Positions 1,555-62,094 of a stretch of DNA of 64,000 nucleotides are shown here, one piece after another. Within the stretch, counting starts at the first letter, position 1; every line of letters begins with the position of its first letter. Location of the stretch: NCBI GenBank assembly GCA_963662655.2, contig CAXXTU010000002.1, positions 992,001 to 1,056,000 on the forward strand. Direction: 5' to 3'. The notes under the pieces are model-generated. The model saw only the letters and a program-made list of their open reading frames with translations, was not told the DNA's origin and ran no database searches. Both the position numbers and the translations under genes were made by a program. This DNA is from Candidatus Cloacimonadales bacterium (GTDB lineage: Bacteria; Cloacimonadota; Cloacimonadia; Cloacimonadales; JAIOQZ01).

Positions 1555-3747
1555 ATGAAGCCTGTTTACCTCGATTTCAACGCCACAACGCCGATCGCAC
1601 CGGAAGTTGCAAACACCATGAAACCTTTTCTCGAAGAATTCTTCGGGAATCCATCCAGCAGTCACTGGTTTGGCATTCAGACACGCAAAGCGGTTGAAGA
1701 AGCCCGTAAACAGGTCGCCGATCTCCTCGGCGCGTATCCCGACGAGATCATTTTCACCAGCGGCGGAACGGAATCGAACAACTACGCGATCAAAGGCATC
1801 GCGTTCGCACGCAGGGATCGCGGGAACCATATCGTCACTTCCTCCATCGAACACCCCGCGGTCATCGAAGTGTGCCGCTTCCTGGAGAAGCACGACTTCC
1901 GGATCACGTACCTTCCGGTTGACGAGTTCGGCCTCGTGAATCCAGCCGATCTAGAAGAGGCCATCACCTCTCAAACGATCCTCGTGTCGATCATGCACGC
2001 CAACAACGAAGTCGGCACGATCCAGCCAATCTCCGAACTCGCCTCGATCGCACACCGGCACGATGCCGTCTTCCACTGCGATGCGGCTCAATCCGTGGGA
2101 AAAATCCCCGTCATCGTCAACGATTTGGGCGTTGACCTCCTCTCGATCGCCGGGCACAAGCTCTACGCCCCGAAAGGAATCGGCGCACTCTACATCCGTA
2201 GAGGCATCACACTCGAGAAGATGATTCACGGAGCGGACCACGAGCAGAACCTTCGCGCCGGCACGGAGAACATCCTTGAGATCGCCGGACTGGGCAAAGC
2301 CTGCGAGATAGCCGCTCGCGACCTCGACAAAAACATGCGCCACATGAAATCCATGCGGGACCGCCTGCATGATAAACTCAGTGAATCCGGGCTCGATTTC
2401 CGTCTGAACGGACATCCGGAAAATCGGCTTCCCAACACGTTGAGCCTTTCGTTTTACAAAGTGGAAGCAAACACGGTTCTTTCGGAGTTGGACGACGTCG
2501 CAGCCTCCGCAGGAGCAGCCTGCCACTCGGATCAGGTCGATGTCTCCGCGGTCCTGGAAGCGATGCAGGTCCCGATCGAGTACGCGATGGGAACCATTCG
2601 CCTGTCGACGGGACGTTCTACAACGGACGAGGATATCGATTTCGCCGCCAAAAGAATTGTCGAAGTCGTTTCGCGATTCCAGGATCAGGGCGATGAACCG
2701 GCTTGCATTGTCCCGACAAGCGACATCAAGCTGACCCATTTTACGCATGGAATGGGATGCGCCTGCAAAATTGAGCCGGACGTCCTCGAGTCCATCTTGC
2801 GAAAGCTCCCACAGCCGATCCACGACAAAATCCTCGTCGGTACTTCCACTGCGGACGACGCGGCGGTTTACATGCTCAGCGACGATCAAGCTGTCGTTGT
2901 TACCCTCGATTTCTTCACCCCGATCGCGGACGATCCTTACACTTTCGGTCAAATCGCGGCTGCCAACGCCATGAGCGACCTCTACGCCATGGGCGCTACT
3001 CCTCTGTTCGGCCTGAACATCGTTGCATTCCCCACGAAACGCCTTCCGCTATCCGTGCTGGAAGACGTACTCAGGGGCGCGCAGTCCAAGGCGGATGAAG
3101 CAGGGATTTTCATCATCGGCGGTCACTCCATCGAGGATCCCGAGCTGAAATACGGAATGGTTGCCGTGGGAATCGTTCACCCGGATCGAATCTGGCGCAA
3201 CGCGGGAATCAAGCCTGGCGATGCCCTCGTTCTCACCAAACCGATCGGAACCGGAGTCCTCTCGACAGCCCTGAAGCGTGGATTGCTGGATGCTTCTCAG
3301 GAGCAAATGCTCAACCAAACGATGTCTGCGCTCAACGCTACCACCTACTCGGTACTAAAGGATTATCAGGTCAATGCCTGCACCGATGTCACCGGCTTCG
3401 GATTGCTGGGTCATTTGACGGAGATGAGCGTCCACAGCGGTATGGATGTCGATATCATCGCGGATCAAGTTCCCGCGCTTGACGGGGTTCTCGAGCTGAT
3501 TGCCGCAAATGTGGTTCCCGGCGGAACGCTGGCGAACTTGCGTCACGTTTCGGGAATGATCGAATGGAACCTGGCCAGACCTCTTCAGCTCCTTCTCTGC
3601 GATGCGCAGACCTCCGGCGGTTTACTCGCTTCCGTTCCGAAAGAAATGGCTGCGGAAATCCTGGCAAAGTTGAAAGCAAAGGGATTGACGGCAGCAATTA
3701 TCGGTCACGCGAAGGGAGAAGGATCAGGGAAAATCTTCGTCAGGTAG
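1555..3747 (+). CDS. selD: Fused cysteine desulfurase (IscS/NifS class) and selenide, water dikinase SelD
   Basis: N half: YLDFNATTP, FTSGGTESNN, HCDAAQ, AGHKLYAPKG (PLP Lys), SAGAACHS. C half: HGMGCACK, DDAAVY, DFFTP, GGHS, TDVTGFGLLGH, DAQTSGGLL. One continuous 730-aa ORF. Confidence 0.93.
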   Translation: MKPVYLDFNATTPIAPEVANTMKPFLEEFFGNPSSSHWFGIQTRKAVEEARKQVADLLGAYPDEIIFTSGGTESNNYAIKGIAFARRDRGNHIVTSSIEHPAVIEVCRFLEKHDFRITYLPVDEFGLVNPADLEEAITSQTILVSIMHANNEVGTIQPISELASIAHRHDAVFHCDAAQSVGKIPVIVNDLGVDLLSIAGHKLYAPKGIGALYIRRGITLEKMIHGADHEQNLRAGTENILEIAGLGKACEIAARDLDKNMRHMKSMRDRLHDKLSESGLDFRLNGHPENRLPNTLSLSFYKVEANTVLSELDDVAASAGAACHSDQVDVSAVLEAMQVPIEYAMGTIRLSTGRSTTDEDIDFAAKRIVEVVSRFQDQGDEPACIVPTSDIKLTHFTHGMGCACKIEPDVLESILRKLPQPIHDKILVGTSTADDAAVYMLSDDQAVVVTLDFFTPIADDPYTFGQIAAANAMSDLYAMGATPLFGLNIVAFPTKRLPLSVLEDVLRGAQSKADEAGIFIIGGHSIEDPELKYGMVAVGIVHPDRIWRNAGIKPGDALVLTKPIGTGVLSTALKRGLLDASQEQMLNQTMSALNATTYSVLKDYQVNACTDVTGFGLLGHLTEMSVHSGMDVDIIADQVPALDGVLELIAANVVPGGTLANLRHVSGMIEWNLARPLQLLLCDAQTSGGLLASVPKEMAAEILAKLKAKGLTAAIIGHAKGEGSGKIFVR

Positions 3748-10191: not shown

Positions 10192-10268
10192 GCCCCCGTA
10201 GCTCAGGTGGATAGAGCAGTTCCCTCCTAAGGAAAAGGTCGCACGTTCGAGTCGTGCCGGGGGCGCCA
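10192..10268 (+). tRNA. tRNA-Arg(CCT)
   Basis: Acceptor stem GCCCCCG/CGGGGGC, D arm GCTC/GAGC, anticodon loop CT-CCT-AA, T arm GCACG-TTCGAGT-CGTGC, encoded CCA. Confidence 0.96.
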
Positions 10269-14954: not shown

Positions 14955-15079
14955 GGTGTGTCATCTTCGCCCGATCTGCGCTCCAACGTGGATATAACAC
15001 ATCCTTTGAACTATCGAGCATAATAATAGGACGTGTAACACCACGTTTCCGCTGCAGATCGAACGAACCTGATCACACC
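14955..15079 (-). repeat. Dispersed structured hairpin element, copy 1
   Basis: Minus strand: GGTGTG-ATCAGGTTCG...CGTGGTGTTACAC-loop-GTGTTATATCCACG...GCGAAGATGA-CACACC; homologous to the copies at 18001, 56768 and 61820. Confidence 0.8.
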
Positions 15080-18000: not shown

Positions 18001-18124
18001 GGCGCGAGCAGATTCGATCGATCTCCCCTTCTACGTGGTGTTCCACATCATTATATTGCGTTCGATAGTCCCGATGATGTGGTATATCCACGTTGAAGGA
18101 GAGATCGGGCGAAGGTACCGCGCC
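18001..18124 (+). repeat. Dispersed structured hairpin element, copy 2
   Basis: GGCGCG-AGCAGATTCG...CGTGGTGTTCCAC-loop-GTGGTATATCCACG...GCGAAGGTAC-CGCGCC, between convergent genes. Confidence 0.8.
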
Positions 18125-32430: not shown

Positions 32431-34644
32431 ATGAACAACCAGACATGGCATCGAATTACCGTTTGCGGCATCGTGCAGGGGGTGGGATTCCGTCCGTTCG
32501 TCTATCGGATTGCGCACGAGATGGGGCTTCACGGGGAGGTGAAGAACTCTCCCGGCGGCGTCATCATCCATGTGCAGTGTACGCCAGGCGAGGTGGAGAG
32601 ATTTATAGCGCGTATCCGGTCGGAAGCGCCGGTGGCGTCCCGTGTGGAGGATGTTCGCATCGAGCCGGCTGAAGCTCGCGACGCGGCGGGATTTCGCATA
32701 GTTCCCAGCGGCAATGACCACGGGATTACGCTCATCTCGCCCGATCTGGCCACGTGCGATGCCTGCCTGAAAGAGATGCTTGATCCCAAGGATCCCCGCT
32801 ATCGATACGCATTCATCAACTGCACCCACTGTGGCCCGCGCTATTCCATCATCCGCGATATCCCCTACGACAGACCGCTCACGACCATGCAGCCATTCGC
32901 TATGTGCGATTACTGCAACAGTGAGTACACCGATCCGCTCAACCGCAGATTCCACGCGCAGCCTGTGGCGTGCCCGGAGTGCGGCCCCGCGCTACAACTG
33001 ATAAGCGAGGATGGAGATAAAATCGACGGAGATCCCGTCGAGAAAACGATCGAGCTGATTCTGGAGGGGAGAATCGTCGCGATCAAGGGAATCGGGGGCT
33101 TCCACCTTGCGTGCGATGCGCGCAACGAGCATGCTGTCAGGCGACTCCGCACGATGAAGCAGCGTCCCCACAAACCTTTTGCGGTGATGGCTCTGCCGGA
33201 ATGGGCGGGTAACGTCGCTGTGATCGATGAAGAGGCCGACAAACTGCTTCGCTCGACGCCTGCTCCAATTGTCATTCTCCCCAAGACGGATCGCTGCAAG
33301 CTGGCGGTAACGGTGGCGCCCGGATATCCCAACGTGGCTTTACTCTTTCCTTACGCTCCGGTTCACTGGCTGCTGCTGAACGACGACAATCCCTGCATGG
33401 TGATGACATCCGCCAACCGTAAGGGAGAACCCATCGCGAAAGAGGAGCGGGAAATCGCGGGTCTCTACGACGCATGCCTGACGCACGACCGCGCCATCCT
33501 AAATCCCTGCGACGACTCGGTTGTACGCCCCTATTCGAGTGGAACAACGCTCTTGAGAAGATCACGCGGCTATATTCCCGAACCGCTCGACATCCCCTTC
33601 GACATCCCGCCTGCCCTCGCCGTTGGCGCGGAGTTGAAAGCCGCCTTCGCGATTGGCAGCGGAAGGCGAGTTTTTCTGTCACCTTATCTGGGGAATGGGG
33701 CCAGTCGCGGTATGGAAAGATTTTTTGTGGAAACGCTGGAGAATTACAAACGCTGGTTTCGCGTGGTGCCGGAGATTGTCGTTTGCGACCGCCACCCTGA
33801 CTATTTCAGCAGTCGCTTTGCGCGCGAGACGGGACTACCGCACATCGAGGTGCAGCATCACCATGCCCATATCGCGGCAGTCATGGCGGAGCACGGTCTG
33901 GACGAATCGGTGATTGGCGTCGTTTACGACGGCACCGGCCTCGGTGACGACGGAACGATCTGGGGCGGCGAGATCATGCTGGCCGATTATTCGCAGTGCG
34001 AGAGGAAGTTTCACTTGATTCCCATGCCCCTCCCCGGGGGCGACGCTTCGGTCTTACGCCCTCAGCGAGCCGCGTTCGCCTGGCTGGATGGAGCGGATGA
34101 TTTCGGGCTGAGCGAAACGGAACGCAGAGTCGTCGAGCGACAGATCGCATCTGGATTCAACACGCCGCTATCCAGCGGAATGGGCAGGCTCTTCGATGTG
34201 GCCTCCGTTCTTCTGGGCTTTCGCGAGGCGATAACATTCGAAGCGCAGGCGGCAATGCAGTTGGAGAACCTCTGCAACAATGCCCTGCTCGAAACGGAGC
34301 CATACGACTACGGAATCGATTCGGGCGTTATCGATCATCGCAACATGCTTCATCAAATCCAGGTCGATGCTCGGGAGGGAGTCGCTAAAAACGTCATCGC
34401 CAGCCGGATGCATCGCACGATCGTTCACTGGACGCTCGAAGCGGTGAAACGTGTATACGTCGAATCGAGCGTACGGAAGATCGTCCTCTGCGGAGGCGTG
34501 ATGCAGAACAGGATTTTAATGGAAGGCTTGACAACTGAATTGTTTTCAGCAGGATTTGACGTATATCGCTCAGAGAAATATCCTTCGAACGATGGCGCGA
34601 TCGCCTTGGGGCAGATCGCCATCGCTGGAAAAGCAAAGAGGTAA
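32431..34644 (+). CDS. hypF: Carbamoyltransferase HypF
   Basis: GIVQGVGFRPF, two CxxC-x18-CxxC zinc fingers, KGIGGFHL, QHHHAH, DGTGLG and NDGAIALGQ. Confidence 0.96.
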   Translation: MNNQTWHRITVCGIVQGVGFRPFVYRIAHEMGLHGEVKNSPGGVIIHVQCTPGEVERFIARIRSEAPVASRVEDVRIEPAEARDAAGFRIVPSGNDHGITLISPDLATCDACLKEMLDPKDPRYRYAFINCTHCGPRYSIIRDIPYDRPLTTMQPFAMCDYCNSEYTDPLNRRFHAQPVACPECGPALQLISEDGDKIDGDPVEKTIELILEGRIVAIKGIGGFHLACDARNEHAVRRLRTMKQRPHKPFAVMALPEWAGNVAVIDEEADKLLRSTPAPIVILPKTDRCKLAVTVAPGYPNVALLFPYAPVHWLLLNDDNPCMVMTSANRKGEPIAKEEREIAGLYDACLTHDRAILNPCDDSVVRPYSSGTTLLRRSRGYIPEPLDIPFDIPPALAVGAELKAAFAIGSGRRVFLSPYLGNGASRGMERFFVETLENYKRWFRVVPEIVVCDRHPDYFSSRFARETGLPHIEVQHHHAHIAAVMAEHGLDESVIGVVYDGTGLGDDGTIWGGEIMLADYSQCERKFHLIPMPLPGGDASVLRPQRAAFAWLDGADDFGLSETERRVVERQIASGFNTPLSSGMGRLFDVASVLLGFREAITFEAQAAMQLENLCNNALLETEPYDYGIDSGVIDHRNMLHQIQVDAREGVAKNVIASRMHRTIVHWTLEAVKRVYVESSVRKIVLCGGVMQNRILMEGLTTELFSAGFDVYRSEKYPSNDGAIALGQIAIAGKAKR

Positions 34645-34646
34645 CC

Positions 34647-34874
34647 ATGTGTCTGGCAATTCCAGGTAAAATCGTCGCAACCGGTGCCGAAAGCGGCACC
34701 GTAGATTTCGGAGGCGTTCATCGCGAAATCTCGCTGGTCTTCGTCCCGGAAGCAGTAACCGGCGACTGGGTGCTGGTGCACACCGGCTACGCCATGAGCA
34801 TCCTCTCCGAGCAGGAGGCCCTCGAAACCATTAGCCTGATCGAAGCGCGCTATGGAACAGCCTCCCTTTCCTGA
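34647..34874 (+). CDS. hypC: Hydrogenase chaperone HypC
   Basis: MCLAIPG...GDWVLVHTGYA. Confidence 0.95.
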   Translation: MCLAIPGKIVATGAESGTVDFGGVHREISLVFVPEAVTGDWVLVHTGYAMSILSEQEALETISLIEARYGTASLS

Positions 34875-35919
34875 GAAAGCATTCCGCGATCCCGCGAAGG
34901 TACGTGCTGTTGTAAATCAGCTTCACAAGAATCAAGTTTCCGCGCGCATCATGGAAGTGTGCGGAACGCATACCATGTCAATAGGCAAATGGGGGTTACG
35001 TAAAATGCTCCCCGATTCGATCCGGCTCATCTCCGGCCCGGGCTGCCCCGTCTGCGTTACACCATCATCTTTTATCGACGCGCTGGCCGGAATATCGGGG
35101 GCGACAATATGCGTGTTCGGCGACCTGATGCGCGTGCCGGGTAACCTTGGAACGATCGAGGACGCGCGCTCCCGTGGAAGAGACATCCGTATGATCTATT
35201 CTCCGCTGCAAGCGCTCGAGATCGCCCGTGAAAGGGAGGTCATGCTGGCTGCCATTGGATTCGAGACAACCATTCCCGGAATCGCCCACACGATTGTCTC
35301 CGCTGCGGAAGAGGGGATCGAAAACTTCTCCGTGCTGTGCTCGCTCAAGCAGATTCCACCGGCGTTGAATGCCTTGCTGCGAAGCGAGGAGGTCCGGGTG
35401 GACGGATTCATTCTGCCCGGTCATGTCTGCACCGTCCTGGGCGTTGAGCCTTTTGAATTCCTACCCGAGGAGTTCGGCGTGGGGGGCGTTATCACCGGCT
35501 TCGAGCCGCTGGATATTCTCGATTCGATTTCCCTAATCATCGGCATGCGAGAATCTCCCGGGATTCACAACCGATATACAAGAGTCGTTTCGTCGGCTGG
35601 AAATCCCCACGCGAGGAGGATGATCGACGAGGTCTTCGAGACGGACGACGCGCTCTGGCGCGGCTTGGGGATGATTGAGAATTCAGGCTACTCGCTCCGA
35701 GAGAAGTACAGCAGATTCGATGCACGACGCAAGTACAACATCGCGATTACCGAAGCAAGCGAACCCGTTGGCTGCCGTTGCGCCGATGTCCTGAAGGGAA
35801 TCATAACACCGGAGCAATGCCCGTTGTTCGCGAAAACCTGCTCGCCGCAAAATCCGGTGGGACCGTGCATGGTCTCCTCCGAAGGAAGCTGCGCAGCCTA
35901 TTACCGCTATGAAAGATGA
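34852..35919 (+). CDS. hypD: Hydrogenase formation protein HypD
   Basis: MEVCGTHT, GPGCPVCV, GFETT, PGHV and GPCMVSSEGSCAAYY. Confidence 0.96.
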   Translation: MEQPPFPEKAFRDPAKVRAVVNQLHKNQVSARIMEVCGTHTMSIGKWGLRKMLPDSIRLISGPGCPVCVTPSSFIDALAGISGATICVFGDLMRVPGNLGTIEDARSRGRDIRMIYSPLQALEIAREREVMLAAIGFETTIPGIAHTIVSAAEEGIENFSVLCSLKQIPPALNALLRSEEVRVDGFILPGHVCTVLGVEPFEFLPEEFGVGGVITGFEPLDILDSISLIIGMRESPGIHNRYTRVVSSAGNPHARRMIDEVFETDDALWRGLGMIENSGYSLREKYSRFDARRKYNIAITEASEPVGCRCADVLKGIITPEQCPLFAKTCSPQNPVGPCMVSSEGSCAAYYRYER

Positions 35920-36892
35920 TACGATAAAACTCAGCCACGGAAGCGGCGGCAACATGACGCGTCGGCTGATCGACGAAGTGATGAACGACCGCTTTCAGAT
36001 GCCGTCCCTCAGCGATTCCGCGCTGATCGGCGGAAGAATGGTCTCCACCATTGACGCCCATGTCGTCAAACCGCTCTTCTTCCCCGGAGGCGATATTGGC
36101 CGCCTCAGCGTGACCGGAACCGTTAACGACCTCGCCGTTGCAGGCGCAAAACCGCTCTCGATCTTCATCGCGTACATCATCGAGGAAGGATTTCCCATCG
36201 AGCAGCTCCGTAGGATCACCGATTCGGTACAAAGAGCCGCACTGGAGGCCGGTGTCAAAATACTCGGCGGAGACACCAAGGTGGTGGAACACGGCAAGGC
36301 GGACGGGCTCTATCTCATCACCTCCGGAATCGGAATGCTACACGAAGGCTACCACCCGAACGGTTGCACGATTCGCGATGGCGACCACGTCATCGTCAGC
36401 GGAACGCTGGGCGACCACGCGATTGCGGTAATCAACGAGCGGGAATCCCTCGGACTAACCCCACCGCCCGAGAGCGATTGCGCGCCGCTCAATCACCTGA
36501 TATCCACGATGCTTGAATGCGCCGACATCCGGTTCATGCGAGATCCCACGCGCGGTGGACTCGCCACCGTACTCAACGAAATCGCTCAAGACCAGCATCA
36601 GGGATTCCTACTGCGAGAGGACGCCATTCCCTTCAAACCATCGATCCGAGCAGCCTCGGGACTCCTGGGCATCGATCCGCTCTACCTGGCCAACGAGGGC
36701 AAGGTCGTCGCGATCGTTCGCGGCGAGGTGGACAAGCTCATCGCCCGGATGCGCAAGCACCCATTGGGGAAAGACGCCGCGGTCATCGGGGCGGTGACCG
36801 GCGAGGCCGGGAGAGTGTATCTCGAAACGGCGATCGGGAGCGTTCGTCAGCTCCCCATGCTGGAATCGGATCCCCTGCCGAGGATTTGCTGA
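35909..36892 (+). CDS. hypE: Hydrogenase expression/formation protein HypE
   Basis: SHGSGG, GTVNDL, GDTKVV, RDPTRGG and C-terminal LPRIC. Confidence 0.96.
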   Translation: MKDDTIKLSHGSGGNMTRRLIDEVMNDRFQMPSLSDSALIGGRMVSTIDAHVVKPLFFPGGDIGRLSVTGTVNDLAVAGAKPLSIFIAYIIEEGFPIEQLRRITDSVQRAALEAGVKILGGDTKVVEHGKADGLYLITSGIGMLHEGYHPNGCTIRDGDHVIVSGTLGDHAIAVINERESLGLTPPPESDCAPLNHLISTMLECADIRFMRDPTRGGLATVLNEIAQDQHQGFLLREDAIPFKPSIRAASGLLGIDPLYLANEGKVVAIVRGEVDKLIARMRKHPLGKDAAVIGAVTGEAGRVYLETAIGSVRQLPMLESDPLPRIC

Positions 36893-56767: not shown

Positions 56768-56901
56768 ATCGTGAGCAGATTCGCTTCTTTCCTGCCTGAA
56801 GCCGTGTTGTTACACGTTGAGCGCTTTCACGATACATTGACTCTTTGCGACAACGTGTTATATACACGGTGGAAGGCAGGATGGAGCGAAGATGCCACGA
56901 T
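56768..56901 (+). repeat. Dispersed structured hairpin element, copy 3
   Basis: ATCGTG-AGCAGATTCG...CGTGTTGTTACAC-loop-GTGTTATATACACG...GCGAAGATGC-CACGAT. Confidence 0.8.
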
Positions 56902-61819: not shown

Positions 61820-62094
61820 ATTCGGAAGCAGATTCGCTCGCTCCGACGAGAAGACGTGGTGTTATACGGTTTTTCGTTTGAAGTGCCAAAAATTCTTCTG
61901 GCACTTCAAACGGAAAATCCTCTCTGAGAACAATTTCCGCCTCTACTGATTTTCAAGTTTGTGGTCCATCGAAGCGGAAATTGTATTACACATCGTGAAG
62001 CGCGTGTATGTTTATTTTCCTGAGTGAGAAAATGTCGCGCTGACCGATGTGTTATATCCACGGCGGAGCAAGGTCGGGCGAAGATGCGACGAAT
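61820..62094 (+). repeat. Dispersed structured element, copy 4 (expanded or composite)
   Basis: 5' arm AGCAGATTCG...CGTGGTGTTATAC at about 61827-61867 and 3' arm GTGTTATATCCACG...GCGAAGATGC at about 62049-62087; internal 14-bp IR at 61875-61912. Confidence 0.7.

Follow-up and report, generated by a model that had tools for sequence, protein, structure and literature searches.

Long covarying hairpins dispersed in a Candidatus Cloacimonadales genome share a folded core with two kinds of miniature transposon found elsewhere

Background

The window analysed here, i.e., the whole stretch of 64,000 nucleotides at C2:992001-1056000 of genome G000 (C1 and C2 being contigs of this genome), contains four intergenic elements for which a reading of the sequence alone had proposed one common hairpin architecture. 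The question raised by these elements is whether they represent an RNA motif or a single-stranded DNA element, to which kind of repeat they belong, and by what means such a repeat might spread.

Results

The four copies in the window

Both the positions given by the sequence-only reading and the shared architecture were borne out on inspection of the sequence. Copy 1 (14955..15079; the minus strand is the well-folding one) and copy 2 (18001..18124, plus strand) belong to a subfamily with a TCGATAG loop, copy 3 (56768..56901, plus strand) has divergent inner boxes, and copy 4 (61820..62094, plus strand) carries an inner segment of 180 nt. In copy 1 the well-folding strand is the leading-strand sequence, which is the minority orientation of the family; in copies 2, 3 and 4 it is the lagging-strand sequence. 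Copies 1-3 each fold, on the strand named, as a single long hairpin (z of -10.0, -7.1 and -8.8), none of 200 shuffles folding as well, and the fold of copy 4 has a z of -7.4. Copy 4 owes its length to further hairpins nested in its loop, namely an inverted repeat at 61870..61917 (recognised by fold and sequence) and a second one at 61932..61982 (by fold); a repeat with the same ends as the latter is also nested in copies of the related genome G001. Contigs of one sequencing run span the 64-kb stretch and bridge copy 2.

That all four elements lie just 3' of genes held true, with the qualification that the nearest gene end is usually on the strand opposite to the well-folding one: a minus-strand ORF ends around 15 nt from the 3' foot of copy 2 and one around 13 nt from copy 3, and copy 4 has convergent genes on both sides. 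Elsewhere in the window are situated a tRNA gene (10192-10265), a fragment of an IS3-like element with several copies in the genome (20013-20256), and a hydrogenase maturation cluster (32431-36892; hypF, C, D, E-like by reading).

The family across the genome

An absence of further copies, which had been named as evidence against a family, was not encountered: around 141 copies exist in this genome, the four of the window among them. HMM pairing of arms provided 127 copies, and a profile-plus-pairing scan gave 16 extra candidates, of which 14 were kept and two without inner boxes were dropped; the same scan yielded no match on a reversed C2 control. Exact matches to the motif pattern number 58 in the genome, vs none for the reversed control pattern. 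According to gene calls made with a crude custom caller, 126 of the 127 copies overlap no called gene, i.e., are intergenic and non-coding; 56 of the 127 lie between convergent genes, gaps of this kind being enriched, and in 96 of the 127 a gene of the opposite strand ends at the 3' foot.

Most copies are single, but there are eight tail-to-tail doublets; in seven of the eight (by tally) a TCGATAG copy is on the leading strand and the lagging-strand partner comes from another subfamily. The loop, which measures at least 80 nt in 23 of 108 copies, can house repeats of other families, and the repeats nested in these long-loop copies belong mostly to one family that is also found free in the genome. 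Besides the hairpin itself, a second repeat family, consisting of short tandem hairpins (C2:606599, 772317, 863000, 184536 and 2346911; C1:35336), occurs free and is also nested in the loops of around 20 copies.

Equally to the first reading, in which no named family was recognised, Rfam (15) matches only a tRNA within the window; copies 1 and 2 have no match at E up to 10, and for 11 loci that represent every casing (i.e., with either kind of transposon ends or with none, see below) a limit of E 0.5 likewise gave no match over the element. The RPE1 model TIGR01045 is over its cut-off in none of five genomes, and none of 79 translated frames matches the NCBIfam RPE models, a comparison made at the protein level. 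In the published literature searched (mainly open-access papers), no description of the hairpin family was found.

Fold and covariation

The well-folding strand forms a rod of 100-140 nt, the apical loop and stem sequences of which are free to change. From the foot, an outer stem of 6-7 bp leads to a bulged A, which 3 bp separate from a tandem purine-purine mismatch; after another 4 bp come two T·G pairs, and after these 5 bp and a variable stem that often contains a GNA/GNA loop. Towards the apex, two facing GTR-N6/7-YAC boxes form a pyrimidine-rich internal loop, followed by an apical part of 3 to 180 nt. The inner boxes are found in either order, the inner loop being flipped, and one-box deletion forms exist. 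Resemblances to the hairpin ribozyme, a parS half-site, the DnaA box, the T-loop and SRP motifs were considered and dropped, the partner motifs being missing or variable.

Pairing was counted in the 108 of 127 copies that could be anchored, with anchor patterns that favour the consensus at the motif positions. The earlier observation that the stems differ in sequence and stay complementary extends to these copies: positions of the variable stem are paired in 77% within a copy vs 68% when crossed with the nearest sibling, and 261 double changes keep Watson-Crick pairs in the variable stems. The same is true of the proposed conservation of the imperfectly paired motifs, the tandem purine pair being Watson-Crick in just 0 and 1 of the 108 copies and the two T·G pairs being retained in 95 and 97; at one position, a left T stands opposite G 39 times and opposite A once. 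The tandem purine-purine mismatches and the T·G pairs are retained on just one of the two strands. Concerning covariation, 24 of 38 pairs show double changes in a 57-copy alignment that was fitted to the model and leans to it, a value reached by none of 500 shuffles, with slid controls giving 6-13, in statistics that ignore kinship. As DNA, the well-folding strand is more stable than its complement in 101 of 108 copies. Covariation, strand stability and the pairs exchanged between lineages (see below) together support the claim that selection acts on a folded single strand of fixed polarity.

Loops of the class C-GNA-G or C-GNNA-G are found on the well-folding strand in 73 of 108 copies and on the other strand in 23, with 20.9 expected; passages of PMC13037366 describe this class as far stabler in DNA than in RNA. 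In part, the GNA loop may have arisen incidentally, through duplication of the inner box.

Ends, siblings and mobility

Comparison of empty and filled sites, as had been suggested, revealed the gap orthologous to that of copy 1 without the element in all three relatives of the genus, which are too distant for exact empty sites. A palindromic repeat of the GTCATCCTGAG type, which occurs several times in the present genome (C2:448140, 1999050, 2077013 and 2656740), fills this gap in G002 (L019:480-590). Of 65 loci from relatives, six correspond to syntenic gaps, and three of these six are occupied here too, vs 130 of 964 gaps overall; therefore, some copies are old or sites have been reused. The copies in the three shared gaps look like different subfamilies.

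Among siblings whose cores are at least 87% identical (22 pairs), identity amounts to around 0.26-0.33 just outside the foot. It reaches background level there within a few bases, which marks the foot as the boundary of the copied unit. The closest pair among the 108 copies compared is no more than 94.5% identical, so that current activity is putative at most. One tail-to-tail doublet was copied whole, being present at two loci. Two identical copies with shared flanks, situated 307 nt apart in another genome (L028:2998-3426, G003:C4), represent a recent tandem duplication.

Concerning target duplication, no excess of repeats of 2-4 nt was found at any of 144 offsets in 122 copies, and direct repeats of at least 10 nt occur in 7 of 141 flanks vs a shuffle rate of 2.4%, i.e., near background. 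Known transposon ends were searched for around the 141 copies, IS1182-like ends being found near one of them and GGG-type ends near none. The outer stem of 6-7 bp is freely variable, and conserved terminal inverted repeats of 15-30 bp are absent.

Strand orientation and replication

With the replichores of C2 set by GC skew, 92 of 123 copies on this contig have the lagging-strand sequence, or leading-strand template, as their well-folding strand, a count that becomes 101 of 136 (p 1e-8) if the added copies are included. This bias holds between convergent genes too (39 of 54 copies), so that orientation tracks replication and not transcription; between divergent genes, all ten copies are oriented in this way. 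Among the relatives, the same orientation is shown by 32 of 33 copies in G001 and by 41 of 47 on contig 4 of G003, both counts being hand tallies against the skew of individual loci from which opposite-strand duplicates were removed and which comprise one copy near the boundary. The TCGATAG-loop subfamily is unbiased (21:16, vs 59:8 for the remaining copies). Leading and lagging copies exhibit no difference in an age proxy (p 0.98). In the related family f12 (see below), local skew gave 20 of 33 copies, a further run being noisy.

Replichore bias is described for DDE families as well in passages of PMC3971601, and bias alone is therefore no proof of a single-stranded step. IS200-type insertion, as treated in part of the same paper, targets the lagging-strand template; the hairpin has the opposite polarity, its well-folding strand being mostly on the leading-strand template, as is, according to a portion of PMC5371416, the folding strand of attC sites in sedentary integrons. 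With such a polarity, either incorporation into the lagging strand or purging of the exposed orientation is needed.

Relatives of the core in other lineages

Model R1 has matches in 4 of 61 genomes, all of this genus, model R2 (36 short and divergent copies) in 10 of 151, adding family f12 of the Cloacimonadales, and model R3 in 13 of 151. In its f12 form the core is AT-rich and has one inner box, every stem pair being exchanged; it is dispersed in 11 of 12 f12 genomes, two of them with weak matches alone, and its copies sit in rRNA, in a Mu-like prophage and in other gaps. The f12 unit of around 217 nt (205-219, one of 172 nt) possesses ends like those of co-resident IS1182-type elements. Such end pairs occur at 13 of 19 f12 loci, with flanking repeats of 11-20 nt in 7 of the 13, and similar ends are found on PF05598-bearing elements of G053 and G003. 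In genus g22, the f12 form lies antisense within an AT-rich insert of 200-240 nt in the 23S rRNA, at a site which we take to be helix 45; the 23S rRNA of the present genome is without an insert of this type. 23S inserts with a hairpin homolog are L266, L268, L269, L271 and L277 (G049, G057, G041, G026 and G031). In the g22 genomes inspected, the core persists in the insert, while the rest varies fast and includes short tandem AT-rich repeats.

A cross-family pattern led to 29 metagenome loci, which by eye comprise 19 of a 180-nt type, six of another, bare type, one of the f12 type, one further hairpin and two that do not fold. In the phylum to which a record labelled Deltaproteobacteria belongs, 19 of 301 genomes contain the 180-nt type, two of them with at least 40 matches. 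Its terminal repeats measure 20 nt, and the same TWA flanks the element at either end in 21 of 32 end pairs, or in 19 of 30 once two pairs spanning neighbouring elements are set aside; core-less forms of 37-93 nt exist as well. One ISAzo13 element (G391) exhibits similar 18-nt ends and TTA on both sides, a likeness seen by eye in a single element. For the bare type, the phylum of a Campylobacterales record yielded 2 positive genomes out of 251, one of them with tandem copies.

In 43 sequences from the various lineages, both partners have been exchanged in 13 of 16 core pairs, and in none of the 43 is the first column of the purine mismatch paired. An HMM made from 13 metagenome elements alone has known copies of the present genome in its top nine matches (E 0.008-0.07). 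The folded core is common to two unrelated kinds of miniature transposon elsewhere, and is bare here. Viral contigs gave no match in three strict scans, 53 loose viral matches together with 32 non-Cloacimonadales GTDB loci gave one weak model match (E 0.11), a first metagenome pattern gave none, and plasmids gave just two short matches at chance level.

Some further arrangements were seen in these genomes. Locus L437 (G066:C271), in a Cloacimonadota bin, contains a full element of the 180-nt type with TAA on both sides, for which transfer or mis-binning is possible. IS1182-type elements were seen inside REP-like hairpins with long flanking duplications (L489-L517; G003, G053, G002 and G031). 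The hairpins of G001-G003 often have a RAYT-type REP of the same orientation before them and CCCTC-type repeats behind them (L123, L125, L134 and L152-L169). One neighbouring RAYT-type REP matches Acido-Lenti-1 of Rfam, which suggests that Acido-Lenti-1 is a REP and not an RNA gene.

Of the two options left side by side at the outset, the DNA element fits better and an RNA role is less likely, because orientation tracks the replichore between convergent genes and a homolog lies antisense in 23S rRNA. The latter option is part of a wider explanation, in which the copies would go back to MITE insertions that have decayed except for the inner hairpin, which host selection retains, be it as a chromosomal DNA signal or as an RNA element (a 3' mRNA stabiliser, a processing site, a protein-binding RNA or a small RNA). 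Gene ends at the 3' foot of so many copies, the enrichment in convergent gaps, the gaps common to species (three of six) and the persistence of the core in the g22 insert while the rest varies all agree with retention by the host. RNA commonly contains G·U and tandem G·A pairs. Moreover, MITEs alter mRNA stability, as stated in passages of PMC3733652. Nevertheless, the strand transcribed together with a neighbouring gene or rRNA is mostly the poor folder, orientation follows replication even where genes converge, the occurrence of the inner module in both orders makes a fixed RNA tertiary fold unlikely, and siblings spread after the shell was lost, such that we hold retention by the host to be rather unlikely.

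Search for an enzyme

The search covered named Pfam and NCBIfam profiles, motif scans, multi-copy proteins and the genes beside copies. As had been noted before, there is no cognate enzyme in the window, and no dedicated gene was found beside copies genome-wide either. PF01797 (Y1/RAYT) is absent from this genome, and the idea that copies might lie beside Y1/RAYT genes found no confirmation in five relatives, where none of 17 Y1 loci has a full copy within around 1.5 kb and the Y1 genes are associated with other repeats. PF07592 (ISAzo13 transposase) is present in none of eight Cloacimonadota genomes, including this one, and in 2 of 10 others; PF05598 (IS1182-type) was not found in this genome or in G001, and one PF01609 gene exists here. 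Motif scans and multi-copy proteins revealed only IS and Mu-like elements, the genes between close copies and those beside copies in relatives are ordinary ones with no candidate enzyme among them, and no transposase is situated between ends of the 180-nt type in the loci inspected. A link to xerD, from which one copy is 6 nt away, was dropped, the position not being conserved.

As to mobile elements, the genome contains ISL3-like (12 near-identical) and IS3-like (8) elements, the family names being based on reading of the proteins, and three of the ISL3-like copies adjoin hairpin copies. There are three to four related Mu-like prophages (C2 around 475-510, 2730-2760, 3290-3323 and 0-10 kb; C1 11-21 kb), and a low-GC reverse transcriptase gene with an in-frame stop, defence-type by reading (G000:C2:981300-982450).

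These genes bear on three further explanations. The copies might be ordinary MITEs still mobilised by a DDE transposase, for which the short outer stem would serve as ends, with the strand bias arising from sliding-clamp coupling. Homologous cores do lie within ISAzo13-type and IS1182-type ends, the ISL3-like, IS3-like and Mu-like elements as well as the PF01609 gene could be sources of an enzyme, and ISL3 is lagging-biased according to passages of PMC3971601. However, an outer stem of this shortness changes freely and is accompanied by no target duplication, PF07592 is lacking here and in the seven other Cloacimonadota genomes just as PF05598 is lacking here and in G001, the ISL3-like ends do not match those of the hairpin, and such ends would leave the conserved inner mismatches unexplained; we consider an origin of this kind unlikely.

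Alternatively, the hairpins could be attC-like sites, i.e., folded single strands on which a tyrosine recombinase acts, with a pseudo-symmetric exchange region made up of the two inner boxes. Free stems, a variable loop, extrahelical bases and placement on the leading-strand template are features shared with attC as described in part of PMC5371416, to which the flippable inner loop and the one-box deletion forms may be added, whereas the integron integrase model TIGR02249 stays below its cut-off in five of five genomes, the two host tyrosine recombinases score best as XerD and XerC (others being prophage types), the foot lacks paired core-site boxes, and the flanking genes are largely housekeeping genes and not cassettes. 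This makes a function as recombination sites very unlikely.

Finally, spread through an RNA copy has been considered, in which the poor-folding strand would be transcribed with the upstream gene and reverse-transcribed, and the cDNA would enter the lagging strand. The transcribed strand is indeed mostly the complement of the lagging-strand copy, but the sole reverse transcriptase gene here is broken, of low GC and around 3 kb from the nearest copy, G001 has 33 copies and no PF00078 match, and the element ends carry neither tail nor duplication. We therefore regard this route as highly improbable.

Discussion

The explanation that we favour, and to which we give an even chance of being right, is that of a selfish hairpin derived from the interior of MITEs, which would have spread without ends, as folded single-stranded DNA near the replication fork, by means of a putative enzyme. 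The core may descend from MITE interiors, or MITEs may have captured it twice. A trans-acting nuclease or recombinase would recognise the mismatch pattern and copy the unit. The strand bias would arise in one of two ways, through incorporation of the donor strand into the nascent lagging strand or through loss of those copies whose well-folding strand is on the exposed lagging-strand template.

A bolder version, possible but on balance doubtful, sees the core as a structural module that acts autonomously, occurs in at least three phyla-level lineages and has been enclosed in ISAzo13 and IS1182 shells. Here it would move alone, by a replication-coupled single-strand pathway that reads the tandem G·A and T·G pairs and puts the folded strand into the nascent lagging strand. 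If so, it would constitute a new class of end-less prokaryotic mobile element together with a new enzyme, and might account for further orphan repeats of the long palindromic sort.

The family bears on how long palindromic repeats (bcr1, ERIC, RPE) spread and on why their interiors keep structure. It provides a natural experiment, with one structure-conserved core in three casings, i.e., two types of transposon ends and none, of which the insertion of a hairpin homolog into 23S rRNA is a further part. Additional assets are the near-absolute replichore polarity in complete genomes and the flipped and one-box variants, which delimit what is read. Should the bare form move by itself, a new enzyme that recognises folded single-stranded DNA by shape would be involved; should it not, selection by the host or at the level of the element would act on MITE cargo.

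Comparison with known systems

The hairpin family does not qualify as a MITE family in this genus. Like these, it is non-coding, dispersed and variable in position, but it has neither conserved terminal inverted repeats nor target-site duplication. The ISAzo13-type MITE, represented by the 180-nt homologs, possesses the same core and apical motif together with ISAzo13-like ends and TWA duplication, whereas the family of the window is without the outer 30-40 nt, the terminal repeats and TWA, has a duplicated inner box, and resides in a host without PF07592. In the IS1182-type MITE, represented by the f12 homologs, the ends match co-resident IS1182-type elements; such ends are absent from the copies of the window.

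The earlier comparison with REP/REPIN or attC hairpins did not amount to identity, since tests of membership failed for both. Concerning attC, the R-box consensus served for comparison of the foot: there is no R-box pair, nor are there an integrase or cassette arrays, and the foot flank columns are unpaired. Conservation of structure instead of sequence, strand asymmetry and placement on the leading-strand template are similar to what parts of PMC5371416 describe. A REP, as defined in PMC6006769, is a hairpin of 20-65 nt whose foot carries the tetranucleotide GT(A/G)G; in the present family the hairpin unit measures 100-140 nt, the foot is weakly (C/A)(G/A)A and has no GT(A/G)G, and the host has no Y1 gene. 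With REPs, REPINs and BIMEs, as portrayed in portions of PMC3733652 and PMC6006769, it shares intergenic position, high copy number, restriction to a lineage, heterodimeric inverted doublets and mosaics with other repeats; the inverted doublet moves as a unit, as in REP/REPIN, one doublet being present at two loci.

From RPE1 the family is set apart by the protein profile, which does not match. The bcr1 repeats of the Bacillus cereus group have a fixed orientation relative to replication. Size, dispersal and compensatory changes resemble those given for bcr1, ERIC and RPE in parts of PMC3184786 and PMC6199540; compared by description, bcr1 differs in its 5-bp flanking repeats and two-stem cruciform (passages of PMC3184786), the hairpin family being without duplication. 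Taken together, the family does not qualify as REP, attC or RPE1, and works most like REP/REPIN and bcr1-type repeats. As its core forms the interior of MITE-like elements elsewhere, it is more readily seen as a kind of interspersed palindromic repeat than as a new class of RNA.
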